Shown: positions 1 through 36,039, counted from the first letter of the stretch. The stretch: DNA of 64,000 nucleotides from Minisyncoccota bacterium (GCA_030583765.1 CP129474.1:201709-265708); one strand, 5' to 3'. The notes: generated by a model not told the origin, from the sequence alone. Translations and numbers: made by a program.

Positions 1-1058
1 CGGCAGCGTCGATTGCGCTGTTCTACCTCTCTCCATTTTTTGAGATTACTCCAAAGACAAACCTGTTTCTCTTTATTACCATCGCGACGTGTCTTTTGAT
101 CACAGCGCGCATGATCGTCATCCGTGCCTCGGCTCGTATTGCACTTCGTACGCTGTTTATTGGCACAGACGCAGCAACCGAAGAAGTTATGGGAGCACTC
201 GTCGCAAACCCATATCTCGGATACATACCTCTGCGCATGCCCGAAGGCTTTGATATTCTCTCCGCCATCACGCACGGCGCATATGACATTATTGTCGTCG
301 GCCCACAAGCGCACACAACTCATCGCGTGCGCGATCTCTTTGCTGCATGCATGGAGCACAATGTGCGCTTTATGCGCTTGTCTGATTTTGCAGAAATGGC
401 ACTTGGAAAGGTGGTGCTCGGAGCCGTAGATAATGAGTGGGTTACCAGTAATATTCCTACGGCATCCCAACGTGGCTATGCGATTGCTAAGCGCGCCGTA
501 GATATTACATGCGCCGTAGTCCTTGGAATTCCGACGCTCCTTGCGCTTCCGCTCGTCGCAGGAGCGATTCGCCTCTCTTCTCCTGGTCCACTCTTATATC
601 GTCAAATGCGCATCGGAAAAGGACTCAAACCTTTCACACTGCTCAAATTCCGCTCTATGGTTGCAAATGCGGAGGCACACACAGGCGCCGTCTGGGCTCA
701 AAAAGAAGACCCTCGCGTTACGCGCTTTGGACGATTCATGCGCAAGACACGCATTGATGAGCTGCCTCAACTGTGGAATGTTTTGAAAGGCGAGCTTTCA
801 TTTGTTGGTCCGCGCGCCGAGCGTCCAGAATTCCATGGCATGCTCCGAGACGCAATCCCGTTCTACAATGAGCGCTACCTCGTAACGCCTGGGCTTACAG
901 GGCTTGCACAAATCTTGTACGACTATGGCGCCTCAGTGCGCGACGCCGCAGAAAAACTCCAGTACGATCTCTATTATATTAAACACCGCTCTCTCGTGCT
1001 CGATGTGAGTATTTTACTTCGTACCATTGCACTTGTTCTCTTTGGAAAAGGCCGCTAG
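1..1058 (+). CDS. Polyprenyl-phosphate sugar phosphotransferase (bacterial sugar transferase, WbaP/WcaJ-like), 5' partial
   Basis: The reading frame is open back to window base 3, so the gene starts upstream of the window. The C-terminal half carries the Bac_transf signature (KPFTLLKFRSM, DELPQLWNVLKGELSFVGPRAERP, TPGLTGLAQI). The N-terminus is hydrophobic. Confidence 0.85.
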   Translation, partial: AASIALFYLSPFFEITPKTNLFLFITIATCLLITARMIVIRASARIALRTLFIGTDAATEEVMGALVANPYLGYIPLRMPEGFDILSAITHGAYDIIVVGPQAHTTHRVRDLFAACMEHNVRFMRLSDFAEMALGKVVLGAVDNEWVTSNIPTASQRGYAIAKRAVDITCAVVLGIPTLLALPLVAGAIRLSSPGPLLYRQMRIGKGLKPFTLLKFRSMVANAEAHTGAVWAQKEDPRVTRFGRFMRKTRIDELPQLWNVLKGELSFVGPRAERPEFHGMLRDAIPFYNERYLVTPGLTGLAQILYDYGASVRDAAEKLQYDLYYIKHRSLVLDVSILLRTIALVLFGKGR

Positions 1059-3328
1059 AGTTCCCGCCCAAGACTCCGCGCGAACATGCGCGCTTCATCA
1101 ATAAGCTCCGGATTGATCTTCACTGCCTCACGTGCCGCTTGGAGCGCATCGTCGATTCGTCCAGCGCTCGCATACGCCGCAGAAAGTGAAACGCGATACT
1201 GAGCATCGGCTGGCTGAATTTTTACGAGCTCTTCAAAAATCTGCACAAGTCGCGTGTAGTTGTTAAATTCGTTATAGAGCGGCACCACCCGATTGTAGTC
1301 CACTTCTGTGCCGACATAGCCACGATCAAATGCTTCTTCGAAATAATCCATCGCAACTGCTTTGTTATTGCGCTCCAATTCAACGGCGCCAACATACCAG
1401 TAAGAAACTGCTACTTCTGGGTTGAGCTTCGCTGCCTTTTTAAACCAGGCAACGCCCGTTTCGTAATCGTTCTTATTGAGATACGCCTGACCGATCTCAT
1501 AGTATGTACGCACAAATGTTTCTGAAAGCTTGAGAGCGGCGGTTGCGTTTTCAAGCGCCTTATCGTTCCACGCAGATGTAGGATCATCTTTCCCAAGCGT
1601 CACATAGAGACGGGAGAGGTAGAGAAGTGGTAGATAGTCGTGCGGATTTTTAATTTTATTTTTTTCCACCTCTGCAATTGCATATTGCATCGCATCAGTA
1701 AACTGCACTCCCAGTGGCGCGAAGCGGCTCACGTCATCAAGGAGGAACTGCGCAAAGCGATGGCGATATTCATATAGCCCAATAGTGTTCTTTTCAATGC
1801 CTTCTTTAAACGAGCTCACCGCGCGAGGAAAATCATTATTCCATCCATACACGATGCCCCACGTAATGGCGCGGTTTGCCCTCGCCGGGATTACCGCAGT
1901 TGTCCAAATGAAGATGCACGCGATAATACTCAACGCAACGCCGATAGCTGGGGCAACCCAGCGGGCCGCGATCAGCCTCTGTGGAGCGGTGGCGCCTTGA
2001 CCAAAGCGCTCCCACGCAATGAAGGAAAAGATGGCAAAGAAAAGGAGCCAATTAGCCGTAGTATCAAAGATAAATGCATTGTGGATCATGTACGCCACTG
2101 TGCCACTCCCTAGTGCCCACGCCATGCGCCACGAAGCATCGTCGCGCTGAGAGATGCGGTAGAGAGCCCAAAATAGCGTAGCAAACAAGGCTACATAGCT
2201 CCCTAAGCCTAAAAGGCCCATGGTAACGAGCACCTCAACAAACATATTGTGCGCTCGATCAAAGAATGTTTCCGATCCATAACCACGGAAAAATTGTGGG
2301 TTGAAATGTTGTGCAAAAGGAATGTTGAAGTTTTCAGGTCCCCAACCAAGGAGCATCGTTTTTGGCGACTCCTGCCATCCACGCAAGCCAGCATCCCATG
2401 CCCAAAAACGCGTTTTCGCTGTGTAGGAATCAAATGATGTATCGGTGAGACGACGCATGAAGCGTGAGCCCTGAGCGATTGAGGAATCCTTTAACGCAGG
2501 GACCGAGATAAGAAGACCGAGAATCGCGGCAATCCCGAGCACACCAACAAGCGCATTGCGCGACCACGTTTCACGAAACTTCCACCACATGCCTGCCGTG
2601 AAGAGCAGCGCGCCAAGGCCCACACCAAGGAGCGAACCACGAACAACGGTCATAGTAACCGCCAAAAGACCAAGCCCGATCATAGCCTGATAGAGACGGC
2701 GCTCCCACGTAGAACCCTGTCCCCTCACCCATAGCGCAAGAGCTAAAAACACTACAGAGATCTGATACCCCGCAAACAGAGCCGCATTACCTATAGTACC
2801 AAAAATACGTTCACGGCCTCCGCCTCCGATAAACCACGATGACAGCGCACAAATACCCGAAGAGCCAGGTGTACACACGGGGAGCTTTTGGCCAAAACCA
2901 TACAGCGCCGAAAGCACTCCGCCAGCGACAAGAAGATTCAAAAAGAATATCCAGTGCGCTCGTTCACGAAGGACTGATGGCACAATGAGCGCAAACGCAG
3001 TGAAATGGAGGAAGCTAAAGAACCCACCCATTCGTTCAAGTGAGCCCCAAAAACTCGCCCATGGCACAATGCTTGTCGCCGTTGCGATACCGAATGCCGC
3101 AGTGAAGGTGAGCATGGCCACGGTGAGGCCGTGCATACGAGGCGCATAGGAGCGATCAACGATCACGAGCATACCATACACCACCACTAGAAGCTCTATG
3201 ATCGAACGAAAGATAATCGCCTTCCCAAAATGAAATGGGGAAATATACTGCGCAAAAATAATCAGCGGCACCACTGCCGTTGCATACACGAGAACGCGCG
3301 CGATCCGAGCCAGGGTCTGGGATTGCAT
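1055..3328 (-). CDS. O-antigen ligase / Wzy_C-family polytopic membrane protein fused to C-terminal TPR repeats (WaaL- or PglL-like)
   Basis: The N-terminal two-thirds is multi-TM. It carries the Wzy_C loop hallmark RAHNMFVEVLVTMGLLGLGSY (HN...E..G.hG). The C-terminal ~330 aa is TPR-like (AYLNKNDYETGVAWFKKAAKLNPE...). It overlaps the upstream convergent gene by 4 bp. Confidence 0.6.
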   Translation of the reverse strand: MQSQTLARIARVLVYATAVVPLIIFAQYISPFHFGKAIIFRSIIELLVVVYGMLVIVDRSYAPRMHGLTVAMLTFTAAFGIATATSIVPWASFWGSLERMGGFFSFLHFTAFALIVPSVLRERAHWIFFLNLLVAGGVLSALYGFGQKLPVCTPGSSGICALSSWFIGGGGRERIFGTIGNAALFAGYQISVVFLALALWVRGQGSTWERRLYQAMIGLGLLAVTMTVVRGSLLGVGLGALLFTAGMWWKFRETWSRNALVGVLGIAAILGLLISVPALKDSSIAQGSRFMRRLTDTSFDSYTAKTRFWAWDAGLRGWQESPKTMLLGWGPENFNIPFAQHFNPQFFRGYGSETFFDRAHNMFVEVLVTMGLLGLGSYVALFATLFWALYRISQRDDASWRMAWALGSGTVAYMIHNAFIFDTTANWLLFFAIFSFIAWERFGQGATAPQRLIAARWVAPAIGVALSIIACIFIWTTAVIPARANRAITWGIVYGWNNDFPRAVSSFKEGIEKNTIGLYEYRHRFAQFLLDDVSRFAPLGVQFTDAMQYAIAEVEKNKIKNPHDYLPLLYLSRLYVTLGKDDPTSAWNDKALENATAALKLSETFVRTYYEIGQAYLNKNDYETGVAWFKKAAKLNPEVAVSYWYVGAVELERNNKAVAMDYFEEAFDRGYVGTEVDYNRVVPLYNEFNNYTRLVQIFEELVKIQPADAQYRVSLSAAYASAGRIDDALQAAREAVKINPELIDEARMFARSLGREL

Positions 3329-3341
3329 AGCTTGTAGCAGT

Positions 3342-4721
3342 TTACGGAATTATCGGTGCTGTGGCAACGGCTATCCTTCGCGACATAATACGCCAGAGCA
3401 TAAGCCACGAGACTATGTGCGAGGCGCCATACCATACTGTCACCATCCCAATCGCGCCCAAAACTCCGAAATGCCCCATAGCCCACAAGCCTGTTGGGAT
3501 GCCGAGAGCGAGCACGCCGATATTGATGCCTATGGAATAGTGTACCGCATGGAGCGCGCGCCATAGGGGCCCCAACGCAACGCCAATGCCGTATACCACG
3601 CCATACCCAAACAAGAGCGCAACAAGGTGCGAGGCATCTGCGAACAGTTCGCCGTAGAGTATGGGAAATACCGTTGGAGCGATGAGCGCCAGTACGCCAG
3701 CGATAGCGGCTGTTATAACAACACCAACGGACGTAGCGCGCACAAAGGTGCGCCGTACGGCTGCAAGCCCAACAAGTTCAAGACGTGGGAATTCCCCATT
3801 CAATAGCGTGGAGAGCGGCCCAATCATGCCGACGCCAATATTGATAAAACCAAATGCGACCTTAAACGCTCCCACCTCTCCCGCAGTGACAAATGTACCC
3901 AAGAGGACCACGGGGAGCACCGCAAAAAGCGTACCGATGTTTCTATCAAATGCCACCAGGGCACTTGCGCGCATGTAGCGCGCAAGTGATACGCGAGCAA
4001 CGTGCGAAAGAATTTCTTCCCAGCTCGGCATGAGCGAATCTCTCACGTGAGTGCGCTGGAGAAGCCAAGCGCTCACAAGAGCAATGACACACGCACCTAC
4101 AAAGTGTCCCGCCATTGCACCGGCAACTCCAAATCCTAACAGAATAGCGCCGAGAGCAAGACCGTTGCGTACAAAGATATCGAGAAATACAAATGCAGAA
4201 AGCGAACGCACGCCGCCAGAAATCTGTAATGCAACACTCGCAAGCGCGAAGAAGAGAGTCGAGATCACCGACGCGCACACCACAACAAGCGCATACCATC
4301 CGATTGCGGAAGCACCGTACCACGCATGGGCGATCCACGGCGCCAGAGCCCCAATCGCAATACCACACATTCCAAGCATCAGCGAAGCCTTGAGCGCATA
4401 TGCAAAAAGAGAAACTACCTCCGCCCGATCACTGCTATGATACGCACGACCAACCATCGACGTTACTGACTCTTGTATACCGACGCCAAACACAATACTC
4501 ATCATGCCAGCCAGCCCCATCGCAAGTGCATAGATACCAAACGCTTCTGGTGCCAAAAGCCGCGCAATAAGAACGCCGGCAACTGCCTGGGTCAGAGTCG
4601 CCGCAACAGTACCAATTTGCAAAATTGCAACCCGCCGCACAAACCAGTGTTGCAGGACACGCCCTATGCGACCGCGAAGATGTGCGTACATTTTGCGTAT
4701 CATAACAACCCCGAAAAACAT
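3342..4721 (-). CDS. Wzx-like polysaccharide flippase (MOP/MATE superfamily polysaccharide biosynthesis protein)
   Basis: A roughly 12-TM protein with a polysaccharide-biosynthesis-protein-like N-terminus (LQIGTVAATLTQAVAGVLIARLLAPEAFGIYAL). I placed the start at the Met at 4721 (alternatives at 4703 or 4691) to avoid overlapping the divergent ABC gene at 4763. Confidence 0.65.
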   Translation of the reverse strand: MFFGVVMIRKMYAHLRGRIGRVLQHWFVRRVAILQIGTVAATLTQAVAGVLIARLLAPEAFGIYALAMGLAGMMSIVFGVGIQESVTSMVGRAYHSSDRAEVVSLFAYALKASLMLGMCGIAIGALAPWIAHAWYGASAIGWYALVVVCASVISTLFFALASVALQISGGVRSLSAFVFLDIFVRNGLALGAILLGFGVAGAMAGHFVGACVIALVSAWLLQRTHVRDSLMPSWEEILSHVARVSLARYMRASALVAFDRNIGTLFAVLPVVLLGTFVTAGEVGAFKVAFGFINIGVGMIGPLSTLLNGEFPRLELVGLAAVRRTFVRATSVGVVITAAIAGVLALIAPTVFPILYGELFADASHLVALLFGYGVVYGIGVALGPLWRALHAVHYSIGINIGVLALGIPTGLWAMGHFGVLGAIGMVTVWYGASHIVSWLMLWRIMSRRIAVATAPIIP

Positions 4722-4762: not shown

Positions 4763-6553
4763 ATGGCACTCGTCCCAACAAAAAAACTAATCTCTATAGC
4801 GCAGCTCGTGCTCTTTGCGTTTCGAAAATATAAGCTGCAATTTGCCGGTCTCATCGGCCTTGGGTTCTTAGGCGGTCTTTCCGAAGCGGTTGGCATTAGC
4901 GCTGCGATCCCGCTTTTTTATCTGATGACGGGGCAGGATCTTCCATCCGCGAACATTATCACGGACTTTATTACTACAGCATTCAATGTTTTACACATAC
5001 CCGTCACACCACCGTTCCTACTTGGCTTTATCATTACCCTTTTCATTTTTAAAGCCGTAGTGCAATTTGCCGTGCGCTATATGAATGCCCTTACTGTAGC
5101 ACGCTTTGAGGAGCAGACACGAAACGACCTGCTTTCCAAGACGCTTCAGGCAACGTGGCCATATCTTCTCAATAAAAAAGCTGGGCATTTAGAAGCGGTC
5201 ATGATTATGGATGTGGAACGCGGCGCAATGGTATTTAACCAAGTAAGCGCTGTTGCTATTTTTCTCACCGGATTCATAACCTATGCCCTTGCCGCGCTCA
5301 GCATCTCAACGCCAATTACTCTTTTATCGATCGGTATTGGTGGAGCGATGTTTTTTCTCTTAAAGCCAGTTTTCTATCGCAGCCGCAAATTGATCGAAGA
5401 AGCTGCCACAAGCACACGAGATATACACCATTATCTCAGTGAGAGCTTTTTTGGCATTAAAGCTATTAAGGCCGCTGCGCGCGAACATCCTGTGCTCGAC
5501 ACGGGCAGACAATATTTCCGGAACCTGCGCAACGCGCGTGTCAAAACTTCTTTTTACAGACAGTCCGCGCTCGCGCTCATTGAGCCGGTGAGTTTCATTT
5601 TTATCAGTATACTTTTTGCCCTCTCATACACTGCACCAACATTTTCTATCGCATCATTTGTGGTGATCATGTATCTCATTCAAAAAATGTTTTCCTTTTT
5701 ACAATCAACACAGAGCAACCTCCATGCAATCAATGAATTTACTCCGCACCTAAAGAGCATACTCCGATATCGCAAAGAAATCGTAACACAACGGGAACAG
5801 AATACTGGCACTACGCCCTTCTCTTTCCAAAAAGAGCTCACGTTTGACAATGTAGACTTTGCTTACAATGAAACAAAGAAAATTCTTGTGAATGCGTCTT
5901 TCTCGGTGCCACGCGGATCATTTACCGCAATCGTTGGTCCTTCGGGCATTGGGAAAACAACCATCGGAGACATACTTCTACGACTTCTGACGCCTCAGGC
6001 TGGGCGTGTCACCATAGACGGACATGACATTTCTACTATTGATATGCATGAATGGCGCAAGCACATAGGATACGTGCCACAAGACCCGTTTCTACTCAAC
6101 GATACTATTGAAAACAATATCCGTTTTTTTGATAACGAGGTGACGCAGGAGCAGATCATACAAGCCGCAAAACGAGCGCATATATATGATACCGTTATGG
6201 AGCTCCCTGAGCAGTTCGCGACAAGAGTTGGCGATCGTGGATTAAAACTTTCTGGCGGGCAACGCCAACGCATAGTGCTTGCGCGCGCACTCGCACGCGA
6301 GCCAAGCATTCTTATCTTAGACGAGGCGACAAGCGCCGTAGATCATGAGTCAGAAGAGCTCATCCAAAAAGCACTGCAGAATCTTCGTGGAAAGACGACT
6401 GTCATCGCCATCACACATCGCATTGCGTCAATCCTTTCTTTTGACCAAATTATTGCCCTCGATCACGGAAAAGTTGTAGAAGCAGGCAACCCTCAAGACC
6501 TCCTTGGGCAAAAAGATTCTTATGTTGCCCGACTTTCATCGATACAATTATGA
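4763..6553 (+). CDS. ABC exporter, fused permease/ATP-binding (MsbA-like lipid/glycan exporter)
   Basis: An N-terminal 6-TM domain is followed by Walker A GPSGIGKTT, ABC signature LSGGQRQR, Walker B ILILDEATSAVD and an H-loop. Confidence 0.9.
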   Translation: MALVPTKKLISIAQLVLFAFRKYKLQFAGLIGLGFLGGLSEAVGISAAIPLFYLMTGQDLPSANIITDFITTAFNVLHIPVTPPFLLGFIITLFIFKAVVQFAVRYMNALTVARFEEQTRNDLLSKTLQATWPYLLNKKAGHLEAVMIMDVERGAMVFNQVSAVAIFLTGFITYALAALSISTPITLLSIGIGGAMFFLLKPVFYRSRKLIEEAATSTRDIHHYLSESFFGIKAIKAAAREHPVLDTGRQYFRNLRNARVKTSFYRQSALALIEPVSFIFISILFALSYTAPTFSIASFVVIMYLIQKMFSFLQSTQSNLHAINEFTPHLKSILRYRKEIVTQREQNTGTTPFSFQKELTFDNVDFAYNETKKILVNASFSVPRGSFTAIVGPSGIGKTTIGDILLRLLTPQAGRVTIDGHDISTIDMHEWRKHIGYVPQDPFLLNDTIENNIRFFDNEVTQEQIIQAAKRAHIYDTVMELPEQFATRVGDRGLKLSGGQRQRIVLARALAREPSILILDEATSAVDHESEELIQKALQNLRGKTTVIAITHRIASILSFDQIIALDHGKVVEAGNPQDLLGQKDSYVARLSSIQL

Positions 6554-7740
6554 AAAAAGCACGCTATCTCCTTGCGCACGGGCTTCGCAAACTCGCTTCG
6601 CGTATCATGCCGCGCGGGCACGCGCAGGGAATCACGTATCCAGACCTTGGTAGCGAGCGTCTTCCGAACGACGCGCCACGAGCACTGATTATTTATAGCG
6701 CAACCGGTATCGATCGCTACGTGCGCGGCGTGCCTCTCTCTGACCCTATTTTTAATAAGCACACCATTTACTGGGAATCAGTCAGGATGGTTCAAATCCT
6801 CAACGATGCCGGATATATCGTTGACTATTGCGATGTTTGGAAGCCATTCTCGGTCGATTGGAAGCGGTATGCCATTGTCATAGATAACCTCAACAATCTC
6901 AAAGATATACCCGAGGAACTCCCCATTAAGAAAGTATACTGGGCAACGAATAACCACTGGCTCACCTGGAATGCTGCCGAGCTACGGCGTCTTACGTGGT
7001 TCCGCGAGCGCACGGGCATAACAGTACCCATGGCGCGACAACTACCCAGCACACTCTCAGATGAGTATGCCGATCACCTCACCTATTTTGGCACCGCACT
7101 CCAACGAGATTCATTCAGCCAGCGCCCACGTGGTCATTGTATTCCTATAAGTAGCTGTGTACTCCCTCCATATAAGAAAAAAGATCTTTCAGTAGCTCGT
7201 AATAAATTTATATGGATGGGAGGTGGTGGTCTTGTACATAAAGGCTTAGACATTGTACTTGAAGCATTTTCGAGAATGCCACATGCAGAGCTGTACGTCG
7301 TGGGCAACATGCAAGAAGAGCCGCGGTTTTGGCAATGGGTACAACCGCTTATTGCAACTCATGCAAACATCCACCCACTAGGATGGATGGACCTTACATC
7401 AAAAGAGTTTTGTGATATCGCAGACCAATGCATCGCTACCGTATACGCAAGTGCGGCAGAGGGCGGTCCTGGCACTATTGCACGATTATTACATCACGGT
7501 ACGATACCTATCGTTACTCCAGAAAGCTTCGTGCGCGCAGAAGTGCACGGATTTCAAATCAACGGGTCAACAGATCAGGAGATGATCGCCTCCACCATGC
7601 ACCTCGTAGAGATGGTCATGCGCATGCCCGATGGCGAACTCCACAACGCCTCGGAGAAAGCCCGCGCATTTGCTAAAGACAACCATACCCGTCATGCGTT
7701 CGAAAAAAGCTTCGCATCATTCATTAAAGAAATAATGTAA
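6550..7740 (+). CDS. Glycosyltransferase, GT-B fold (GT4-like)
   Basis: C-terminal GT-B motifs are present (FIWMGGGGLVHKGLDIVLEAF, YASAAEGGPGTIARLLHHGTIPIV). There is a 4-bp overlap with the upstream ABC gene. Confidence 0.55.
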   Translation: MKKARYLLAHGLRKLASRIMPRGHAQGITYPDLGSERLPNDAPRALIIYSATGIDRYVRGVPLSDPIFNKHTIYWESVRMVQILNDAGYIVDYCDVWKPFSVDWKRYAIVIDNLNNLKDIPEELPIKKVYWATNNHWLTWNAAELRRLTWFRERTGITVPMARQLPSTLSDEYADHLTYFGTALQRDSFSQRPRGHCIPISSCVLPPYKKKDLSVARNKFIWMGGGGLVHKGLDIVLEAFSRMPHAELYVVGNMQEEPRFWQWVQPLIATHANIHPLGWMDLTSKEFCDIADQCIATVYASAAEGGPGTIARLLHHGTIPIVTPESFVRAEVHGFQINGSTDQEMIASTMHLVEMVMRMPDGELHNASEKARAFAKDNHTRHAFEKSFASFIKEIM

Positions 7741-9277: not shown

Positions 9278-9283
9278 ACCAAC

Positions 9284-14660: not shown

Positions 14661-14664
14661 GTGC

Positions 14665-23917: not shown

Positions 23918-23939
23918 TATTCTCTTTATCTAAAATACC

Positions 23940-24866: not shown

Positions 24867-24872
24867 ATATTT

Positions 24873-26980: not shown

Positions 26981-27642
26981 GGTGATATTTTGCGCGCACG
27001 GACAATAAATTGGAATGCGAAAAAGCTCGGGAAAAAACGCGCTACGAAAGCAAGCTTGCCGGGGAAAAGGATGTGTCTCTCCTTTTCTATGGTAAATCCA
27101 ACATCACGGAGCGCACGCTGAAGCGAAGCGTATGTAAACCATCGAATGTGGCCAAAATCAAACATTCCTTGATCTTGGTATTCGAAGAAGCCGAACATAA
27201 ATCGAATACGGTTTGTCCAAGTAAGGAAGTTAGGGGTGGTAAGAATAATAAACCCATCGTTTCGAAGAGCGCTATGGCACTGACGAAGGAACGGCTTTGG
27301 GTCAAAAAGATGTTCGATCACCTCTGACGCTATGATGCCGTCGAACGGCTGGCCTATCACTTCTCTGGGCCACTCTTTTTCGATATCGCACACCCATGCG
27401 CCATCAAGCACGTTGCGCGCCGCCTCAACCGCACGAGGAGAAATGTCGACACCGAAGACCGCATGCCCACGCTCTTTGGCGTGTGCGCCAAGACGACCTT
27501 GAGCGCACCCGATGTCCAGAATACGAGAGGGGTGCGATGGCAGGAGAGATAGTATGCGATCGCGCCGCGTATGGCTCATACCGTATTGAGGGGCTTTGTG
27601 AAGATAATAATCAGTAGGCATAAGAGGAGAGGATGTCGTCAA
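26977..27642 (-). CDS. Class I SAM-dependent methyltransferase
   Basis: Motif I ILDIGCAQGRLGAHAKERGHAVFGVDISPRAVEAARN. The start may be an internal Met (27621 or 27579) given the 32-bp overlap with the upstream gene. Confidence 0.7.
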   Translation of the reverse strand: MTTSSPLMPTDYYLHKAPQYGMSHTRRDRILSLLPSHPSRILDIGCAQGRLGAHAKERGHAVFGVDISPRAVEAARNVLDGAWVCDIEKEWPREVIGQPFDGIIASEVIEHLFDPKPFLRQCHSALRNDGFIILTTPNFLTWTNRIRFMFGFFEYQDQGMFDFGHIRWFTYASLQRALRDVGFTIEKERHILFPGKLAFVARFFPSFFAFQFIVRARKISP

Positions 27643-28660
27643 TCTCTATGGCAAGTTGGCGCGTAGATGCCTGACGTACATACTGCAAACGCGCACCTTC
27701 TCCGAGCATTGTACGCAGTCCATGGTTATCCGCAAGCGTTTGGATGGCATGAGCTAGCGCGCGGGCATCGCCAGCGGGGACATAATAAATCGCTTTATCA
27801 TCAAAGAGCTCTCTCATCGCAGGAGTATCGGCACTAATGATCGCCCTACCAGATGCCGCAGCCTCGAAAATTTTATTTGGTATTACAAGATCTGTCTTCT
27901 GACTTGTACCAAAAATACCCAAGCATATGTCAGAATTCGCTATGTATTCTGCTAAATTCTTATATGAAACGGAATCAATGAAAGTTATTGAGGGCACTTC
28001 ATGAGCCATTTCACGAACTCGCACATACGTCTGCCCTTTTCCTATGAGGATCGCGCGTACATGCGTCTGGGGGCGCAGCATACGCATGGCCTCAACGATA
28101 ACTTCCACTCCGTGAAGCGGAATAAAAGTACCGTGAAAATGTACCACGATCTCCGAATGGGGAGCGCTCGACGCGCGTGGAAAGAATACTGATTCGTCAG
28201 TACCAACAAATATACGGTGAAAAAGTTCCCGTGGCAGCTTAAACTCGCGCATGAAAAAATCGATATGCGCCTGGGTGTCCAAAAGTACTTTATGTGCGAG
28301 CTTGCACGACCACGTATCAAGAAATCTATACCACCATGCGCGAATACTTTTTGTCCCTGCTTTTTTGCGATCTAAAATATATCCACCGTAGTGGGATGTA
28401 AACGCATCGAAAATAATAGATCCCCTAAACAGTAGGCGGGCTAAGAACATAACTTTTTGGCCAGGGAAAAGCACAAGCATTATAGAGAACGCCTCCTTGC
28501 GGCGCATATATTGCACGCATAAATCGATGTAGCCGCGAAGCCCCTCGTGCTCTGTGCGCATATGCGTAATGCTATACCCCGCCATTAAGCACGCCTGCGC
28601 AAGCACCCTATTGCGCGCATAGAGAGGATCATATGTTCCAAAGAAGAGAATGTTCTTCAT
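27611..28660 (-). CDS. GT4 glycosyltransferase
   Basis: GT-B architecture with a C-terminal E-x7-E-like region (IPNKIFEAAASGRAIISADTPAMRELF). 4-bp overlap with the upstream gene. Confidence 0.7.
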   Translation of the reverse strand: MKNILFFGTYDPLYARNRVLAQACLMAGYSITHMRTEHEGLRGYIDLCVQYMRRKEAFSIMLVLFPGQKVMFLARLLFRGSIIFDAFTSHYGGYILDRKKAGTKSIRAWWYRFLDTWSCKLAHKVLLDTQAHIDFFMREFKLPRELFHRIFVGTDESVFFPRASSAPHSEIVVHFHGTFIPLHGVEVIVEAMRMLRPQTHVRAILIGKGQTYVRVREMAHEVPSITFIDSVSYKNLAEYIANSDICLGIFGTSQKTDLVIPNKIFEAAASGRAIISADTPAMRELFDDKAIYYVPAGDARALAHAIQTLADNHGLRTMLGEGARLQYVRQASTRQLAIEIDDILSSYAY

Positions 28661-29688
28661 GGTGTGCGGAATATGATAGAAAGGGCCTGTTGTATACGCA
28701 CACGCATGGTGTGATCGCGCAACACTCGGTTGCGCCCACGAGCGGCGATGGATTGACGCTCTACAGGATGAGCGAGCCAGTACATAACCTTAGGCTGCAG
28801 ATCGGATATGTGTGTAAATGTAGCAACTTCCTGCTCAATAGCAAAAACGTCTTTAAGACCAGCGCGCTCATCGGTAAGCTCAAACCCCCCTGCGGCAGGT
28901 ATCTCAAATGTCTTCACATTCACCCCGTGCGTTTCAGGGAGCAAATTCATATTGATACAAATCGCTGATCGCCGATATATCTCTGCGGCTTCCTCCGGAG
29001 TCACCGAGCCGCGATAAAACCTAGCAAGTGGCGTTGCGCGCCACCCTGACCACCCGAAAAGTCCAAGACGTATGTGCGGCAACGTAGTAAGAGTCATGAG
29101 AGCCTCCTGACGCTCGGGATATGGGGCGCCAATAAAACACACGTCGAATTCGGGCGCCGCGGGCATGGATCCATGGAATCTTTCAGGCACAAGCGCAAAG
29201 GGCAATACAAAGAAGCGATCTCGCCGTTCTTCCGGCATATACGTCACCGCGCTTGCATCAAATGAAAAAAATGTATCATACAATCCGGCAACCGAACGCA
29301 TCCATGATGCATAGGGTTCGTGGGCGACATTTTCCGGGCACCAGTGAGCTACGCGTACTCCGCGATCTTGTGCATAGCGTATAGTGTCTGGCTTTACTAA
29401 CAAACTCTTGTGCACAAAGAGAGCATCCGGCCGCCAAACGTCTATATGCTGCCGTATCATTGCGGCAAGGCGCTGGTTACTTATGCGGCGCAGCATGTGT
29501 ATGCGCCGAGTAGCGCGCCACACCCACCCACTCTGCAATAAGCTCCATGCAGGGAAAAGCCAGTTGAAGCGGTCATCGACCCAGCGCACATCGCAATCAT
29601 TCTCACGGAAGCCCTGCATCATCTGTTCCGTGAATGAGCCTCGTGGCGCGATAAGAAGAATGCGTTTTTTCGTCATAAGCCGACACAA
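28657..29688 (-). CDS. Putative glycosyltransferase, CgeB/DUF3880-like GT-B
   Basis: The C-terminal region (GLFGWSGW...INMNLLPETHGVNVKTFEIPAAGGFELTDE) resembles the CgeB-family glycosyltransferase C-terminus. Confidence 0.45.
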   Translation of the reverse strand: MCRLMTKKRILLIAPRGSFTEQMMQGFRENDCDVRWVDDRFNWLFPAWSLLQSGWVWRATRRIHMLRRISNQRLAAMIRQHIDVWRPDALFVHKSLLVKPDTIRYAQDRGVRVAHWCPENVAHEPYASWMRSVAGLYDTFFSFDASAVTYMPEERRDRFFVLPFALVPERFHGSMPAAPEFDVCFIGAPYPERQEALMTLTTLPHIRLGLFGWSGWRATPLARFYRGSVTPEEAAEIYRRSAICINMNLLPETHGVNVKTFEIPAAGGFELTDERAGLKDVFAIEQEVATFTHISDLQPKVMYWLAHPVERQSIAARGRNRVLRDHTMRVRIQQALSIIFRTP

Positions 29689-30716
29689 GTAAGAATGCGG
29701 GCGGTAACACCAAGTACCGAATGCCGCTCTCGCACACGACGCATCAAATAATCACGCATTTCTTCTCGCTCTGATGCACTGAGCACGAGTATCTGTTTGA
29801 TACGCTCCGCTACAGCGTGCTGTGGCAGAGATTCATCAAGTAAAAGAAGGTGTGCGTATGGCCCAAAATCATCGTGAAATATGTGGTTGGTTGTAATCGG
29901 AAGAACGCCATACGCCATCGCTTCCAGAACGGCCTTATCAAGCCCTCCCCGTGGCGCTAAATTCACCGCGATATCAGCCCATGCATAGTGTGCTGCGATC
30001 TCATTATGTGGCACCGAGCCTGCCCACTCGATATGAGCGGCGTGTTGTGCACGAGCATGAATGCTTCTAGCGTATTGCTCATCGCTCGGCATCATTGGAG
30101 AACCGACAACACGCAAGGTATGCGAAATACCTTCACGCATAAGCTGCAAGGACGCCTCAATAATTCGGTTAATGCGTTTTAAGGGCGTAATGCGAGCTAC
30201 GCTGATGATGTGAAGCCCCTCGTGCTCGTCTCGCGCCCGAGGGACATCGGGGATAGAAATACCGTGCCCAACGCTCACAATCTTTGAAGATGTGATGCGG
30301 AGACTGCGCGCATCGGCAGTAATTAAAGCATCGCTCAAGAAAAGAGCGAGGCGGAGACGAGTAGTAACCGACCGGTGTAAGTACCAAAGGAGTAGTTTTG
30401 TTTTCGAAAAAAGTGTCCACGGCCATGCGGTGATAGCGAAAATGGGCGACATGTGAGCCAGCACAGCGCGTGAACCGGGGATCAGCCGCGCAGTGAGTAT
30501 GAGATAGCGAAAAATCTGAACCAATTTAGACACACCCCGCTCTTTTCCAAGTGAATAGACGGATACATTGGATGGTAGTGAATAAGCGCCCTTTGCAAGC
30601 GTTATCACATCAACATGATCAACGCGATGCGCCAAAGCGCGGATCCACGCCACAAAAAATCCAAGCACATCACTACGCTCATCAACGCTCTGGGTTATGA
30701 TGACGATGCGCTTCAT
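29673..30716 (-). CDS. GT4 glycosyltransferase
   Basis: GT-B protein. C-terminus ...NLAPRGGLDKAVLEAMAYGVLPITTN is typical of GT1/GT4. Confidence 0.7.
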   Translation of the reverse strand: MKRIVIITQSVDERSDVLGFFVAWIRALAHRVDHVDVITLAKGAYSLPSNVSVYSLGKERGVSKLVQIFRYLILTARLIPGSRAVLAHMSPIFAITAWPWTLFSKTKLLLWYLHRSVTTRLRLALFLSDALITADARSLRITSSKIVSVGHGISIPDVPRARDEHEGLHIISVARITPLKRINRIIEASLQLMREGISHTLRVVGSPMMPSDEQYARSIHARAQHAAHIEWAGSVPHNEIAAHYAWADIAVNLAPRGGLDKAVLEAMAYGVLPITTNHIFHDDFGPYAHLLLLDESLPQHAVAERIKQILVLSASEREEMRDYLMRRVRERHSVLGVTARILTCVGL

Positions 30717-31825
30717 AGCTGAAAAATATTCTGGATGGCACGGGCAGAGGCGCTTATAACCTGTTCACGAGCATACCTTTCACGAATGTCGTGAGATCCT
30801 TTCTCTGCCCGAATCTGCCACGAAGGATCTTCGAGCACATCTCGCATCCCCTGCACAATATCGTCTAGCGACCAATGCACGATACGTACTGCTGCGCCCT
30901 CTTGTCCAAGGTCTTGGATAACCCCCACGGGAGTTGCGATCACTGGAATACCGCACGCGAGCGCCTCTACGGCAACGCGCGGACCCCCTTCACTGTCTGA
31001 CAACATCACCAAAGCCCGAGCTTCTCTTATTGCTTGTAATACCTCGGCCGCTGAATCGACCCACCCACTCCACGTTATACGGCTGCTCACTCCCTGTTGG
31101 CGTGCGTATTGCTGCGCCCAGTCCAAGAGAGATCCTGTACCAATAACACGCATCGTTGCGTGCTCAAGACGCGCAAGCGCCTCTATGGCACGCTGAATGC
31201 CTTTATTACGCTCTATACGCCCTACAAAAATAAAGTCGTGTGTCACGGGCATTTGAGGGGGCTCCTGCATCGTGGGGAGAAAGAGAGCGGGAATGAGATG
31301 GAGCTTCTCGCGAGCTACACCCCACGCTAAAAGACGCTTCCCCGTTTCACTCATATTCATCACACGAACGCCCGAAGCAATGCGCGCTTCGACGGGCACT
31401 ATAATCCGCGAGAGATACCGGTAGACCACCTCACGGAATGAGCCGGCCCGAGGGACTCCTGGAATATGAAAAATCTCGAGAAGCGCGGGAATACCCAAAC
31501 GTCTTGCAAGGAAAAGCCCCCCTATTCCATTGTAAAATGGTGGGTATTCATGGATGGTCATACCTCCGTATGTGCGCTCGCGCCCAAGGCGCATCCCCGT
31601 GCGAAAGATATGTAGCCACTGCATCAGGAGAGGAAGGCGGGATGCATGCACATATACATTAGGGAATGGATTCTGTCGTACCATACACCCTCGCGCTACT
31701 CGAGGCACAATAATATCAATACGGTCCCAGTGCTTATGGAACTCTGTGAGCATGTGAAAAAATGCTCCGTCCATACCCGCAGCAAGCATACGATCACCGC
31801 TCACCATGAGAAGTGTTTTATTCAT
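30713..31825 (-). CDS. GT4 glycosyltransferase
   Basis: MLSDSEGGPRVAVEALACGIPVIATPVG motif. Start chosen at MNKTLL (31825), which gives an ATGA 4-bp overlap with the upstream gene. Confidence 0.7.
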   Translation of the reverse strand: MNKTLLMVSGDRMLAAGMDGAFFHMLTEFHKHWDRIDIIVPRVARGCMVRQNPFPNVYVHASRLPLLMQWLHIFRTGMRLGRERTYGGMTIHEYPPFYNGIGGLFLARRLGIPALLEIFHIPGVPRAGSFREVVYRYLSRIIVPVEARIASGVRVMNMSETGKRLLAWGVAREKLHLIPALFLPTMQEPPQMPVTHDFIFVGRIERNKGIQRAIEALARLEHATMRVIGTGSLLDWAQQYARQQGVSSRITWSGWVDSAAEVLQAIREARALVMLSDSEGGPRVAVEALACGIPVIATPVGVIQDLGQEGAAVRIVHWSLDDIVQGMRDVLEDPSWQIRAEKGSHDIRERYAREQVISASARAIQNIFQL

Positions 31826-32979
31826 AGGTGTAGCGCCTTTATCCATGCCTCACGCATACGCGCCTCATCATACAAGCGAGCCGTTGCCTTTCCCGCCTCA
31901 CTCATGTGTGCGCGAAGCTCTGGCATATCCCATAGCGCACGAATGGCTTCGCGGAGATTGAATTCATCATTGTACTTTACCATCAAACCATTCTCTCCCT
32001 GCGAGATAATTTCGCGATTGCCGCCGGCCGTGGTCGTAATCACAGGAACGCCCGCAGCCATCGCCTCAATGATCTGATGCGAGAATCCTTCATATCCTGT
32101 GTTAAGCACGAAGAGATCTGCCGCAGCGAGATACGTCGGGAGCTCTTCATGGGACTTCGCTCCGACAATAAACACCTTCTTCTCCAAACCAAGATTTCTA
32201 GCCATGGTACGAAGTACATCGCGCTCAGGACCATCACCCACGATCACTAATCTGAAAAACTGATTAAGCTCGAGAAGTTGCGGCATGATTTTGATGAGCA
32301 TGCGAAATCCCTTCCAAGGAACTAACCGGCCGACCGAAACAATAAGTGTCCCCGGGATACCGATTCGCGTACGTGCATCTTGCTGCGAGATCTCTGATGG
32401 TGAAAATGTTACAGCGTTGGGCACAATCACGATACGCTCGGAATCGTACCCCCATCCCTGCACAATAGATTGTAGGTATTGAGATGGCACAACCACCTGA
32501 GCACTACGACGCACAACCCACCGCTGTATGCGGCGAAGCATACCCGCCCAACCACCTATCTGCACACCCTGAAAATCATCAATGAGAAGATGCGTGTGGC
32601 GCTTTTGTATTGCATATTCCCATGCATAGTCTCCAGCAATACGCACCGTTACTGGAATGCGCCGCAACATGCCCGCTATATGTGCGGCAATTCCAGGCGT
32701 TTTTCCCGAAAGCGCCAAGAGGTGGGTCGCTCCTGCACTTACCCACCACACCCGAAGCGCGTAGAGGATATGGCGCACCATCCAAGGCCACCAGCGCGAT
32801 ACACGATACACCTCAATACCCTGCTCCTGCTGACCCCGCCCAAATGCCACCACGCGCACGCGTACCCCACGCTCATGAAACGCACGCGCTACCGCATGCG
32901 CAACGGTTGCTGGGCCACCTATATCAGGGGGATAAATGCCAGTTGCGATAACAAGAAGTGGTTTCTGTTCGTTACTCAT
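31822..32979 (-). CDS. GT4 glycosyltransferase
   Basis: N-terminus LLVIATGIYPPDIGGPATVAH. C-terminus YEGFSHQIIEAMAAGVPVITTTAGGNREII. Start at MSNEQ (32979). Confidence 0.75.
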   Translation of the reverse strand: MSNEQKPLLVIATGIYPPDIGGPATVAHAVARAFHERGVRVRVVAFGRGQQEQGIEVYRVSRWWPWMVRHILYALRVWWVSAGATHLLALSGKTPGIAAHIAGMLRRIPVTVRIAGDYAWEYAIQKRHTHLLIDDFQGVQIGGWAGMLRRIQRWVVRRSAQVVVPSQYLQSIVQGWGYDSERIVIVPNAVTFSPSEISQQDARTRIGIPGTLIVSVGRLVPWKGFRMLIKIMPQLLELNQFFRLVIVGDGPERDVLRTMARNLGLEKKVFIVGAKSHEELPTYLAAADLFVLNTGYEGFSHQIIEAMAAGVPVITTTAGGNREIISQGENGLMVKYNDEFNLREAIRALWDMPELRAHMSEAGKATARLYDEARMREAWIKALHL

Positions 32980-33677
32980 GAAAAAAATGACGCACGAATG
33001 ATGTGCCATATTGCCGCGACACCGTCGGCCCATTGAATTTTCTTTCCTTCTGCATACGTGCGACCTCGATACGAAATCCCCACCTCATATATACGGAGTT
33101 TTTGCTGAGCTACCCGTGCTGTAATCTCCGGCTCAATGCCAAAACGAGCCGCGCTGAGATGTGGCAGAATGCGCATGAGTGCATCGCGCGTAAAGACTTT
33201 GTATCCCGTTTCCATATCAGAAAGATTGAGCCCCGTGCACATATTTGAGAGAAATGTGAGGAAGACGTTTGCAACATAGTGAGAGAAGTAGAGCGCACGA
33301 CGCGGGAATGCAGAAATAAATCTCGAGCCGTAGACCACATCTGCATCGCCAGCAAGAATGGGCTCAAGAAGGAGCGGGTACTCTTTGGGACTATATTCTA
33401 AATCTGCATCCTGAATGAGAATGACGTCTCCAGAAGCTTTTGCAAAACCAGTGCGGACCGCGGAGCCCTTCCCCAGATTCTGCGCGTGGCGCACCGTAAC
33501 CCATCCCGGACGCACATGATGTGCAATGACCCGAGCGGTGTCATCAGTTGACGCATCGTCAACAATCACAAGCTCCTTCTCCCATTCCGGCAGGACAACT
33601 GCATCAATGGCCGCAAAAAGCTTCGGCAATGTGGCGGCCTCATTAAATACGGGAATAATAATGGAGAGCTTTTTCAT
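32976..33677 (-). CDS. GT2 polyprenol-monophosphate hexose synthase (Dpm1/GtrB-like dolichol-/undecaprenyl-phosphate mannosyl- or glucosyltransferase)
   Basis: MKKLSIIIPVFNEAATLP...VIVDDASTDDTARV...ILIQDADLEYSP is the canonical Dpm1-like GT2 catalytic core. It is short and soluble, as Dpm1-type synthases are. Confidence 0.75.
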   Translation of the reverse strand: MKKLSIIIPVFNEAATLPKLFAAIDAVVLPEWEKELVIVDDASTDDTARVIAHHVRPGWVTVRHAQNLGKGSAVRTGFAKASGDVILIQDADLEYSPKEYPLLLEPILAGDADVVYGSRFISAFPRRALYFSHYVANVFLTFLSNMCTGLNLSDMETGYKVFTRDALMRILPHLSAARFGIEPEITARVAQQKLRIYEVGISYRGRTYAEGKKIQWADGVAAIWHIIRASFFS

Positions 33678-34795
33678 GCCAAAGTATCGTACACTGCAGC
33701 CATGCGCGGGGCAATAAGGCTCCAAAGATACTCTTGAGAGACCATGCGTTGTGCTGCAGACACAACAGCATCTCGCTCAGCGCCCGATTGCGCCGCACGC
33801 ACCAGAGCGCGCGCCACAGAGGGGATATCATCGGGATCACATACGAAGCCTGTCACGCCATCGTGCACAAAGTCGCGTAGCCCCCCACGTCGCGAGGCAA
33901 CGACAGGCACGCCCGCAGCCATCGCTTCAAGAAACGCGATGCCCTGTCCTTCAGATCGAGAAGGCCGCGCGTAAACATCTGCGGCCCCTAGTTCCTGGAG
34001 CACGTCACGGTGGCTCACGGGCCCGCGCCAGACGATGCGATCATGAAGGCCGAGACTTTTTGCCAACGTTTTCAGCGCGTGGGCATCCTCTCCAGTCCCG
34101 GCCAAAACAAGACGCCACGGAAAGGAAAGTGTTGCACACGCACGAATGAGAGCATCGATGCCATTCTTTGCGACAAGACGACTTGCGGAATATATGCACA
34201 CTTCATCAGCACGCACTCCCCACGACTCACGCAATTGAGCTCGCTCTTGAGCAGAGCACGTGGGCGCTGCGTCGACTCCATTAGGAATCAACACGACCTT
34301 TGCATCATGGCGCACGTGGCGTGCATAGGTCGCAAGAGGAGAGCTAATTGCCGTCACCACATCTGCATATCGTACCGCAAGCCATCGGCCAGCCCGGACA
34401 AGAAAAGATTGCCGGCGAAAATCGGCGCCCTCTTGGAGCGTGAGGACAAGTGGCGTGCCGGAAAAGAGCCGTACCACCAACGCCGCGAGAGCTGCATATG
34501 ACGCCTGGTACGCATGGAGTACCGAAGCGTGGCGCGCCTCCCAGAGACCCACAATCGCACCGAGCACCAAAAAGAGATACTTATCAAGCCACGCGATACC
34601 AAGACCGATGCGATAGATCCGCACATTGTCGTACGTTTCTCTAGCGGGAAATGTCAGCGAATGGCGCGGCGTGAGCACCACAAAAGAACGCTCAGACATA
34701 TGGCGCATAAATGCCTCGAGGGCCAATTCCGACCCGCCAATAAGGGGTCGGAAAGCAGGGGAAAAAACGAGAATATTGCTTGCTGAATGGGTCAC
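33674..34795 (-). CDS. GT4 glycosyltransferase
   Basis: SRSEGQGIAFLEAMAAGVPVVASRRGGLRDFV motif. First gene of the translationally coupled minus-strand GT operon. Confidence 0.75.
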   Translation of the reverse strand: MTHSASNILVFSPAFRPLIGGSELALEAFMRHMSERSFVVLTPRHSLTFPARETYDNVRIYRIGLGIAWLDKYLFLVLGAIVGLWEARHASVLHAYQASYAALAALVVRLFSGTPLVLTLQEGADFRRQSFLVRAGRWLAVRYADVVTAISSPLATYARHVRHDAKVVLIPNGVDAAPTCSAQERAQLRESWGVRADEVCIYSASRLVAKNGIDALIRACATLSFPWRLVLAGTGEDAHALKTLAKSLGLHDRIVWRGPVSHRDVLQELGAADVYARPSRSEGQGIAFLEAMAAGVPVVASRRGGLRDFVHDGVTGFVCDPDDIPSVARALVRAAQSGAERDAVVSAAQRMVSQEYLWSLIAPRMAAVYDTLA

Positions 34796-34842
34796 GGGTT
34801 GGTACTATCATAGCGCGCATAGCAACGTAAAACAACGCCCTT

Positions 34843-36039
34843 ATGCCCCACGAATCCTCGGCTTTAATCCGTATTCTGTGCATCATAACCCAGTCTGATA
34901 TGGGCGGAGCACAGCGTTTCATCAGCGAACTTGTGACGCATAGCGATGCACAGCGTTTCACATTCTCTGTTGCCGCAGGTCCTGATGGCAATCACGCATT
35001 GCGCAATGCGCTCCCAGAGCGCGTTGCGTATCGCCCCATTTCGTCTCTACGTCGCGCAATTGCGCCATGGCACGATCTACGTTGCATCCGAGATATCCGT
35101 GAACACATCCTCGCGGAGAAGCCTGACATCCTGTTCCTCAACAGCTCTAAGGCGGGTATTCTTGGTGCCATAGCGGCGCGCTCATGCAGAAAAGCCCTCC
35201 CTCACATGCGCATTGTGTATCGTATTGGTGGTTGGCAATTCCGAGATCCCATCCACCCGCTTCTCCAAACGACATACCGAACGCTTGAGCGTTGGTCTGC
35301 GCGCTGGAAAGACGTCATAGTCGTTAATAGTGAATCAGATCGCGACGCTGGCATCACTCACCACATCGCGCCACGAAGGGAGCTCATAGCCATTCACAAT
35401 GGCATTGATCCCTATCCAACAACGTATACGAGAGCAGAAGCCCGTGCGCACATTGCTGAAGCAATACAAATACCGATCTCGGATACCACAACTCTCATTG
35501 GCACGATTGCGAATGCGTATCCAGCAAAGGATCTGCCAACATATATTCGTGCCGCCCTCCACTTTAATCCTCAAGCGCACTGGATCATTGTCGGAGACGG
35601 ACCGGAACGCCCCGCGCTTGAACAACTCATACGCCGCTTAGATCTACAATCCCGCGTTCACATCATAGGCCAACGGCAAGATGCTAAAATGCTCATTCCC
35701 GCATTTGACGTTTTCGTGCTTGCCTCAGTGAAAGAAGGGTTTCCGTGGGCGCTCCTTGAAGCAATGGCTGCTAAAGTCCCCAGCGTTGCAACGCGTGTTG
35801 GTGGCATTCCGGAAATTATTACCGACGGCGAAGACGGCTTACTCGTTGAGCCACAAAATCCAGCAGCACTAGCGCAGCGCATACACACGCTCGTTGCAGA
35901 AGAGCGACTCGCCCACGATATTGTCATTGCCGCCCATCAGCGGATCGTCACGCGCTTTTCGCTCCAGAGCATGATCGCCGCGTACGAGCGCCTTTTTATA
36001 ACCCTTTTGCGCGAGCAATCTCCTGCGGGATCAAAATAA
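34843..36039 (+). CDS. GT4 glycosyltransferase
   Basis: N-terminus IRILCIITQSDMGGAQRF. C-terminus SVKEGFPWALLEAMAAKVPSVATRVGGIPEII. Confidence 0.75.
   Translation: MPHESSALIRILCIITQSDMGGAQRFISELVTHSDAQRFTFSVAAGPDGNHALRNALPERVAYRPISSLRRAIAPWHDLRCIRDIREHILAEKPDILFLNSSKAGILGAIAARSCRKALPHMRIVYRIGGWQFRDPIHPLLQTTYRTLERWSARWKDVIVVNSESDRDAGITHHIAPRRELIAIHNGIDPYPTTYTRAEARAHIAEAIQIPISDTTTLIGTIANAYPAKDLPTYIRAALHFNPQAHWIIVGDGPERPALEQLIRRLDLQSRVHIIGQRQDAKMLIPAFDVFVLASVKEGFPWALLEAMAAKVPSVATRVGGIPEIITDGEDGLLVEPQNPAALAQRIHTLVAEERLAHDIVIAAHQRIVTRFSLQSMIAAYERLFITLLREQSPAGSK

Follow-up and report, generated by a model that had tools for sequence, protein, structure and literature searches.

We analysed a 64,000-nt window of the genome of a Minisyncoccota bacterium (GCA_030583765.1, CP129474.1:201709-265708; hereafter the window), the first 36 kb of which had been described, in a reading made from the sequence alone, as a glycan supercluster whose parts include a WaaL/Wzy_C-family protein fused to tetratricopeptide repeats (TPR). 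Open reading frames (ORFs) of at least 150 aa were scanned against Pfam and NCBIfam, and gene calls reaching beyond the window edge were taken from L004 and L006, two contigs of the window's own organism. The window opens, as had been proposed, inside the gene for the initiating polyprenyl-phosphate sugar-1-phosphate transferase (PGT; 3..1058, plus strand), which matches Bac_transf at E 1.6e-61 and TIGR03025 at 315 bits (cut-off 296); its N-terminus is cut by the window start, and 351 C-terminal residues of the 432-aa protein lie inside. Next to it, on the minus strand, are the genes for the Wzy_C-TPR protein (757 aa; 1058..3328), with Pfam matches to both Wzy_C and TPR, and for a Wzx-type flippase (3342..4691; 449 aa as called on L004 and L006; Polysacc_synt and Polysacc_synt_3). 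A plus-strand ABC exporter with fused transmembrane and nucleotide-binding domains follows (4763..6553). It had been called MsbA-like, and the ABC_membrane and ABC_tran domains are indeed present, but MsbA (285 bits) is outscored by HepA_fam (322 bits), with PglK at 202 bits, and all three fall below their own cut-offs; we regard it as a HepA/MsbA/PglK-like exporter that is possibly a second flippase for lipid-linked glycan. The glycosyltransferases and tailoring enzymes attributed to the remainder of the 36 kb are also present and are detailed below. The gene content of the supercluster is thus confirmed, although the functional unit exceeds positions 1-36039, reaching beyond the window start on one side and to about 48405 on the other.

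In the Wzy_C-TPR protein, the Wzy_C domain spans residues 217-378 and scores 47.7-48.8 bits against a cut-off of 31.7 (50-65 bits in seven other family members), and Pfam TPR matches are found at residues 597-741. The loop motif DRAHNMFVEVLVTMGLLGLG (residues 357-376, nt 2201-2260) carries the DRAHNMFVE...GLLG pattern already noticed in the earlier reading. A full-length AlphaFold 2 (AF2) model was obtained with a pLDDT of 85 and a pTM of 0.80, and a model of the N-terminal 500 residues with a pTM of 0.86. With the transmembrane domain of the N-terminal model as query, Foldseek returned a single match at E<=0.001, the WaaL structure 7tpg_B (E 2.7e-7, TM-score 0.68 over 455 columns), and a profile of the N-terminal region of the family likewise has WaaL (7TPG) as its sole match among PDB sequences, at a marginal E of 0.004. 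Full-length queries are dominated by the repeats: a PDB sequence search gave TPR proteins only, and Foldseek mostly the TPR domains of CTPR, OGT and SPY. On the strength of the model, we assign the protein the WaaL fold, with a core of twelve transmembrane helices (TM1-TM12) and a large outer loop.

Residue correspondence points in the same direction. R230, R307 and H360 are invariant in 36 homologues and are aligned by HMMER with R191, R265 and H313 of the Cupriavidus metallidurans WaaL (CmWaaL). With hhalign they correspond to R215, R288 and H338 of the Escherichia coli WaaL (EcWaaL), an alignment used for residue correspondence only, as the family profile is not significantly similar overall to the single E. 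coli WaaL and WbbH sequences (E 0.12 and 0.6). By alignment, R230 and R307 are the two arginines that bind undecaprenyl diphosphate (Und-PP), and H360 is the acceptor-activating histidine of ligases. The same Arg/Arg/His set is conserved in PglL (PMC3643930), whereas related inverting Wzy polymerase families (clan GT-C1) carry Asp or Glu at the position of the histidine (PMC10920833). The large extracytoplasmic catalytic loop (residues 276-361; 2246..2503, minus strand) contains invariant R293, R307, D357, R358 and H360, and has the highest identity of any part of the protein (63%, against 48% for the transmembrane core and 46% for the TPR domain).

After TM12 the model continues with a long additional helix, TM13, assigned from AF2 secondary structure (residues 455-496; 1841..1966, minus strand), and then with sixteen helices that form a TPR superhelix of eight repeats (residues 500-757; 1058..1831, minus strand), recognised by both Pfam and Foldseek. 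Charges follow the positive-inside rule, alternating cleanly over all loops of 36 homologues, and this places the repeats outside, on the side of the catalytic loop. TM13 is therefore predicted to carry the TPR domain across the membrane and to hold it beside the catalytic loop.

The protein belongs to a large family: at E<=1e-30 the N-terminal profile matches 3453 clusters (50% identity), and among the 150 top-scoring matches listed, nearly all have lengths of 720-830 aa, enough to include the C-terminal domain. Neither PglL_A (PF15864) nor Wzy_C_2 (PF11846) is matched by eight family members even at E<=10, and none of the NCBIfam ligase models is matched by the Wzy_C-TPR protein. As judged from these comparisons it belongs to the WaaL/Wzy_C superfamily (CAZy GT121) and not to the PglL family proper, bearing in mind that WaaL and PglL are not separable by simple sequence comparison (PMC3643930).

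A search of one genome per species yielded 196 Wzy_C-TPR relatives, and 80 loci were kept, all from metagenome-assembled genomes (MAGs) of Patescibacteria type or titled merely 'bacterium'. More than 670 homologues (about 745 aa, 45-50% identity) have source names that are all Patescibacteria, Paceibacterota, Parcubacteria or Yanofskybacteria MAGs, and some TPA assemblies labelled 'Saccharibacteria' nevertheless fall among Yanofskybacteria in the tree. These relationships identify the window organism as a Patescibacterium of Yanofskybacteria/Paceibacterota-like affiliation. That the gene encodes a genuine lipopolysaccharide (LPS) ligase of a diderm was considered and rejected on this taxonomy. 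Patescibacteria are described as a monoderm phylum (PMC11665869), so lipid A-core is unlikely to be the acceptor in the window organism. The apparent absence of LPS machinery holds in so far as no lpx, kdsA/B or lpt genes are found among the window ORFs scanned; it has to be qualified by a KpsF/KdsD-family sugar-phosphate (arabinose-5-phosphate) isomerase (17235..18221; TIGR00393 kpsF 228 bits, above cut-off) and by a GT9 (heptosyltransferase family) domain fused to a methyltransferase (22145..23917), which are the only families of LPS-core or capsule flavour in the cluster. No KdsA, KdsB or heptose-pathway genes were seen in the window.

The Wzy_C-TPR gene adjoins those for Wzx and the PGT, as in the classic Wzx/Wzy trio, and we therefore considered whether the protein is a Wzy-type polymerase that builds a long capsule or wall polysaccharide from flipped repeat units, the polymer being attached by another enzyme and the TPR domain acting as a built-in co-polymerase or export scaffold. 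The Wzy_C Pfam family does include polymerases, the cluster has no second recognisable Wzy, and TPR domains are known in polysaccharide secretion scaffolds. Polymerases are specific for their repeat unit and normally swap together with Wzx. We examined the surroundings of the gene by tblastn in 83 loci, and the order Wzx–Wzy_C-TPR–PGT–U577–HPF–SecA recurs in about 50 of them, including both the contigs of the window organism and distant genomes; the glycan genes on the Wzx side vary between genomes, with an ABC exporter, an ABC-2 pair, a second Wzx or different glycosyltransferases. Close relatives show how sharply the two sides differ. Between L006 and L007 the identities are 87% for Wzy_C-TPR, 88% for the PGT and 96% for SecA, compared with 40% for Wzx; between L051 and L054 they are 81%, 76% and 88% compared with 38%; and between L052 and L079 they are 72%, 78% and 85% compared with 44%. 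Loci L006 and L007 have no other glycan gene in common within 10 kb, and in L051–L054, as in L006–L007, the glycan genes are unrelated although the Wzy_C-TPR proteins are 81-87% and the PGTs 76-88% identical. The converse is seen at the distant locus L001 (149-8586), where the cassette from the ABC exporter to the 325-aa protein is 53-80% identical to that of the window but Wzy_C-TPR and the PGT only 47% and 46%.

Because Wzx and the glycan genes are replaced in close relatives and the cassette is kept in the distant L001, the sequence comparisons indicate that the glycan cassette, flippase included, is exchanged horizontally between Patescibacteria and that the Wzy_C-TPR and PGT genes are inherited vertically. 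Such decoupling is what would be seen for a ligase that is promiscuous for its donor and has a fixed acceptor, rather than for a polymerase specific for its repeat unit. The polymerase explanation also has to contend with the invariant histidine at the acceptor-activating position in place of Asp or Glu, with an identity of 45-50% maintained over a class-level clade, unlike the usual diversity of Wzy proteins, and with the lack of any Wzz/PCP (Wzz/GNVR) or LCP gene among the window ORFs scanned; we judge it quite unlikely. Given the invariant histidine base and the decoupling from the glycan cassette, the Wzy_C-TPR protein is probably a WaaL-type en-bloc glycan ligase and not a Wzy polymerase.

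A second kind of Wzy_C-TPR copy bears on what the ligase may act upon. We refer to copies beside Wzx, PGT and SecA genes as class A, and to those beside PMT-TPR, GSDH and surface-protein genes, found in about 20 loci, as class B. In a neighbour-joining tree the class-B copies constitute a single clade nested within class A, and some genomes (the assemblies with L016/L031 and with L042/L060) have a ligase of each class. The class-B context comprises, in order, a large surface protein, a small anchored protein, PMT/TMTC-like TPR membrane enzymes, a GSDH-like propeller, Wzy_C-TPR, a polytopic membrane protein and a GT4 glycosyltransferase, and window genes 34843..48405 are the orthologues of these neighbours, at 31-52% identity. 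Because of this orthology the en-bloc and PMT-like parts, which the sequence-only reading had linked, can be taken to belong together: in the window both flank the 35-kb glycan block with a single ligase, and in the genome of the window organism a fused supercluster appears to be served by one ligase. At locus L092, where the family member is a distant one, genes for surface proteins with Lamin-tail (LTD) and TIG domains come directly after the ligase gene.

The downstream module of the window is encoded on the minus strand throughout. Its largest product is a secreted protein of 1219 aa (44746..48405) with a signal peptide, a pI of 4.5, 22% Ser+Thr and four Cys. A PDB sequence search with it gave nothing useful. 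Its homologues number 390, are about 1200-1250 aa long and, among those listed, nearly always lack Pfam domains; homologues are linked to class-B Wzy_C-TPR genes. Its composition and context resemble those of an S-layer or major surface protein, and we take it as the candidate acceptor. In near-identical strains its best homologue (P0287) is 92% identical, as compared with 99% for that of the ligase, both recorded on contigs of 109,029 nt, which suggests that the exposed protein evolves faster than the ligase. A membrane-anchored GSDH/TrAA12-like beta-propeller protein (423 aa; 43368..44639; Pfam) is next, the gene for which is immediately upstream of class-B Wzy_C-TPR in many loci. Two membrane proteins carry TPR: a glycosyltransferase with PMT_2 (GT-C) and TPR domains (594 aa; 39796..41580; PMT_2 26.5 bits, cut-off 26.1), with orthologues 44-46% identical, and its paralogue (24% identity), a polytopic protein with a C-terminal Pfam TPR domain (37459..39216) whose orthologue on L087 has a weak TMTC_DUF1736 match. 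Between them lies a small membrane-anchored protein (188 aa; 39220..39786), conserved as an orthologue in class-B loci, in which a low-complexity scan finds a Ser/Pro-rich linker (nt 39613-39687); from its sequence it is a candidate target of O-glycosylation. In all, that scan picks out Ser/Thr/Pro-rich linkers in three proteins close by that are secreted or anchored. An LTD protein (49049-50017) with a Thr/Pro/Val-rich linker at 49739-49813 is encoded shortly past the 1219-aa protein.

The module also contains two polytopic paralogues (23% identity) of 488 aa (35996..37462) and 589 aa (41602..43371), neither of which has a Pfam, NCBIfam or PDB match. The former is 42% identical to the orthologue directly beside class-B Wzy_C-TPR. 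We considered whether the two are hidden relatives of Wzy, Wzy_C or PMT proteins and found no signal. Both have a conserved pattern in the first loop (D..W.HL..GE...HxWL), and they could represent an undescribed GT-C-like or polymerase family.

The combination of a Wzy_C domain with TPR has a precedent in S-layer glycosylation. WsfB of Paenibacillus alvei has Wzy_C with a C-terminal TPR, and WsaB of Geobacillus stearothermophilus has a TPR neighbour (WsaA/WsaB); both are predicted S-layer protein O-oligosaccharyltransferases, presumed to act on a large surface protein (PMC2943079). The window resembles these systems in its monoderm host, in the domain order, in a glycan cluster that combines a WbaP-like PGT with export by ABC or Wzx proteins, and also in an asparagine-synthase (AsnB) homologue (PMC2943079), but differs in that the Patescibacteria family has a core-genome position beside secA and in that the acceptor is putative. 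PglL, PilO (TfpO), PglS and TfpM similarly have Wzy_C with the conserved Arg/Arg/His (PMC3643930). PglL-type O-oligosaccharyltransferases (O-OTases) transfer glycans en bloc from Und-PP with relaxed glycan specificity, and their substrate genes are often adjacent (PMC12645811); adjacency to surface-protein genes is seen here for the Patescibacteria paralogues and for one distant member. Unlike PglL and PglS, the present family has neither PglL_A nor Wzy_C_2, and unlike PglL-type enzymes in general it belongs to another phylum and type of envelope, with no adjacent pilin gene in the window. A membrane glycosyltransferase fused to a non-cytoplasmic TPR is also seen in the eukaryotic TMTC/PMT enzymes and in TfpW, a pilin-glycosylating GT-C enzyme whose TPR is periplasmic (bioRxiv 10.1101/2020.04.19.049825). 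Window genes 37459..41580 are of this type; TfpW, TMTC and PMT differ from Wzy_C-TPR in belonging to another catalytic family, which uses polyprenyl-monophosphate sugars one at a time and not an Und-PP-linked glycan en bloc.

On account of the external and conserved TPR domain, the linkage to surface-protein genes and the WsfB and TfpW precedents, we rank a protein first as the acceptor, and tentatively propose that Wzy_C-TPR is a protein O-oligosaccharyltransferase working like WsfB or PglL, an assignment held with distinctly less confidence than that of ligase activity itself. According to this proposal, the PGT (1..1058) would prime undecaprenyl phosphate, and up to about 14 cytoplasmic glycosyltransferases together with tailoring enzymes would assemble one or two lipid-linked glycans, which Wzx and/or the ABC exporter would flip across the membrane. 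At the outer face R230 and R307 would hold the undecaprenyl diphosphate and H360 would activate an acceptor hydroxyl, with the glycan moved in one step. The TPR superhelix, kept outside by TM13 and beside the catalytic loop, would recruit the acceptors, presumably surface proteins, whether secreted or anchored, for example the acidic, Ser/Thr-rich 1219-aa protein and those with Ser/Thr/Pro-rich linkers, to which the downstream PMT/TMTC-like TPR enzymes may add further sugars.

Several considerations weigh against a protein acceptor, an assignment that is circumstantial and unproven. The PglL-specific motifs PglL_A and Wzy_C_2 are missing from the family members; this is not decisive, since the O-OTases TfpO and TfpM lack both as well (PMC12645811). 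WaaL, the closest relative of known structure, has a lipid as its acceptor, and TPR domains occur also in polysaccharide-export scaffolds and hence are no proof of protein binding. In the window about 41 kb separate the Wzy_C-TPR gene from that of the candidate acceptor. The PMT_2 family includes the lipid A-modifying ArnT, such that the downstream GT-C genes are no proof of protein glycosylation, and the likeness to WsfB is one of domain architecture and of context as described. The earlier suggestion of a PglL-like, protein-targeting ligase is thus upheld as regards the type of enzyme, the external TPR domain and the surface-protein neighbours, but not as regards membership of the PglL family.

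A lipid acceptor is the chief alternative raised by these points. Wzy_C-TPR could be a TacL- or WaaL-like glycolipid ligase that takes the flipped glycan off undecaprenyl diphosphate and attaches it to a glycolipid anchor in the membrane, generating a lipoglycan coat similar to lipoteichoic acid, with the TPR domain as a scaffold, chain-length or partner-binding module. The likeness to WaaL (GT121; C. metallidurans 7TPG and E. coli) encompasses the Wzy_C domain, the 12-TM GT-C(B) fold with its large outer loop, an exact match of catalytic residues, with both Und-PP-binding arginines and the acceptor-activating histidine aligned and invariant, and conservation of the enzyme alongside variable genes for the donor glycan; WaaL is moreover the sole solved relative. 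The lipoteichoic acid ligase TacL of Streptococcus pneumoniae, a Wzy_C protein, ligates an Und-PP-linked polymer to a glycolipid (PMC5727136), illustrating transfer to a non-LPS anchor in a monoderm, and a conserved acceptor with a variable donor suits a lipid anchor as well as it does a protein. However, WaaL and TacL are proteins of about 400 aa without TM13 or TPR. The Wzy_C-TPR protein differs from WaaL in its monoderm host, the extra TM13, the external TPR domain of roughly 260 aa and a sequence similarity that is marginal in profile searches; it differs from TacL (397 aa, no TPR, not beside surface-protein genes) in its length of 757 aa and its repeats. Transfer to a glycolipid would in addition leave unexplained the repeated adjacency to surface-protein genes and to PMT/TMTC-like TPR enzymes, and no glycolipid-anchor synthase is recognised in the window Pfam scans. 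We consider a glycolipid acceptor somewhat unlikely, though a serious competitor to a protein.

Transfer to the wall is a further alternative, in which the glycan is attached to peptidoglycan or to a secondary wall polymer that anchors surface proteins. The host is monoderm, relatives L091 and L092 have the peptidoglycan genes MurT/GatD beside the locus, and no LCP gene was seen in the window. A domain of about 110 aa common to U577 and the 1219-aa protein, the C-terminal part of the former resembling residues 60-175 of the latter (E 3e-11), may be a surface- or wall-anchoring domain, and as a wall-glycan-binding anchor it could be accommodated in this scheme. The gene context gives it no specific support, and to our knowledge no Wzy_C-family enzyme transfers to peptidoglycan, a reaction performed by LCP phosphotransferases, so that we regard a wall acceptor as improbable. 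U577 itself is conserved and secreted, has 577 aa and an HEFQH (HExxH) motif, and gives no Pfam match; its gene lies just upstream of window position 1 (L004:13645-15378) and, in most class-A loci, between the PGT and HPF/SecA genes.

Returning to the protein acceptor, a broader and more doubtful version of the proposal is that Patescibacteria of the Paceibacteria/Yanofskybacteria type use the Wzy_C-TPR family as their general protein O-oligosaccharyltransferase. In them a vertically inherited PGT and ligase pair beside secA would load exchanged, strain-specific cassettes onto a conserved S-layer-like protein, and a duplicated ligase would be dedicated to the PMT/TMTC-like module. The enzyme is of a known kind and its architecture is known from WsfB, but it is now found in a large and uncharacterised family of Patescibacteria. 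We have found no earlier description of its genomic logic, in which the ligase and PGT stay in place next to secA, the glycan cassettes can be swapped, and a duplicate of the ligase belongs to a PMT-like/surface-protein module. A conserved ligase and PGT joined to a swapped glycan cassette corresponds to the logic of O-antigen loci, in organisms without LPS. Very little is known of the surface chemistry of Patescibacteria, although they account for much of bacterial diversity and those in cultivation are attached to host cells. If the conserved 1200-aa surface protein is the acceptor, then the strain-specific coat that faces hosts and phages would be a glycoprotein, and these ultrasmall, host-dependent bacteria would have an 'O-antigen' serotype system borne on protein. 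Thousands of clusters annotated merely as 'O-antigen ligase family protein' would in that case offer donor-promiscuous O-oligosaccharyltransferases from a new source.

Pfam glycosyltransferase matches occur in 14 ORFs of positions 1-36039, 13 of them above the gathering score, in agreement with the count of at least 14 given previously. The exception starts at 6550 (24 bits, below cut-off) and is the first of a plus-strand group (6550..10965; Pfam) composed of this glycosyltransferase-like ORF of 396 aa, two NAD-dependent epimerase/reductases, a Methyltransf_24 protein and the 325-aa protein of no recognised function. The other thirteen lie in a glycosyltransferase-rich block (18200..36039; Pfam), and start at 18200 (GT8), 19048 (a double GT4 of 729 aa), 21303 (GT11), 22145 (the methyltransferase and GT9 fusion), 25829, 27611, 28657, 29673, 30713, 31822, 32976 (GT2), 33674 and 34843; besides those named and the single GT2, the block contains seven GT4/GT1-like genes, a glycosyltransferase matching Glyco_trans_1_2 only, two epimerases and a methyltransferase. 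Between the two is a tailoring block, largely on the minus strand (10955..18221; Pfam), with a cupin, a methyltransferase, an AsnB-like amidotransferase, a 2OG-Fe(II) oxygenase, the KpsF/KdsD-family isomerase and a 487-aa protein of no recognised function. In total the tailoring genes comprise four epimerase/reductases, three further methyltransferases, the amidotransferase, the oxygenase, the cupin, the isomerase and a radical-SAM/SPASM protein. PDB sequence searches with the ORFs at 9988..10965 and 14665..16128 gave nothing useful.

The radical-SAM/SPASM gene (16090..17187) is on the plus strand within the tailoring block, and is overlapped over nearly its whole length by an antisense ORF of 343 aa (16183..17214, minus strand) with no family match; of the two readings of 16090-17214, the Pfam match identifies the plus-strand gene as the real one. 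Further from the cluster, an ORF of 531 aa without a Pfam match (54370-55965) coincides with a patch of 61% G+C, against a window average of about 51%, and has a Thr/Pro-rich stretch at 55228-55302; several long ORFs overlap there on both strands and its true frame is uncertain. A homologue of BacA/UppP, the undecaprenyl-diphosphate phosphatase, is located at 56007-56585, 8 kb from the cluster, and as listed spans the first ~154 of 257 profile positions, such that it may be truncated or have a mis-set start. Within the glycan cluster itself the G+C content dips in parts to 47-49%, compared with 53-55% in the flanks.

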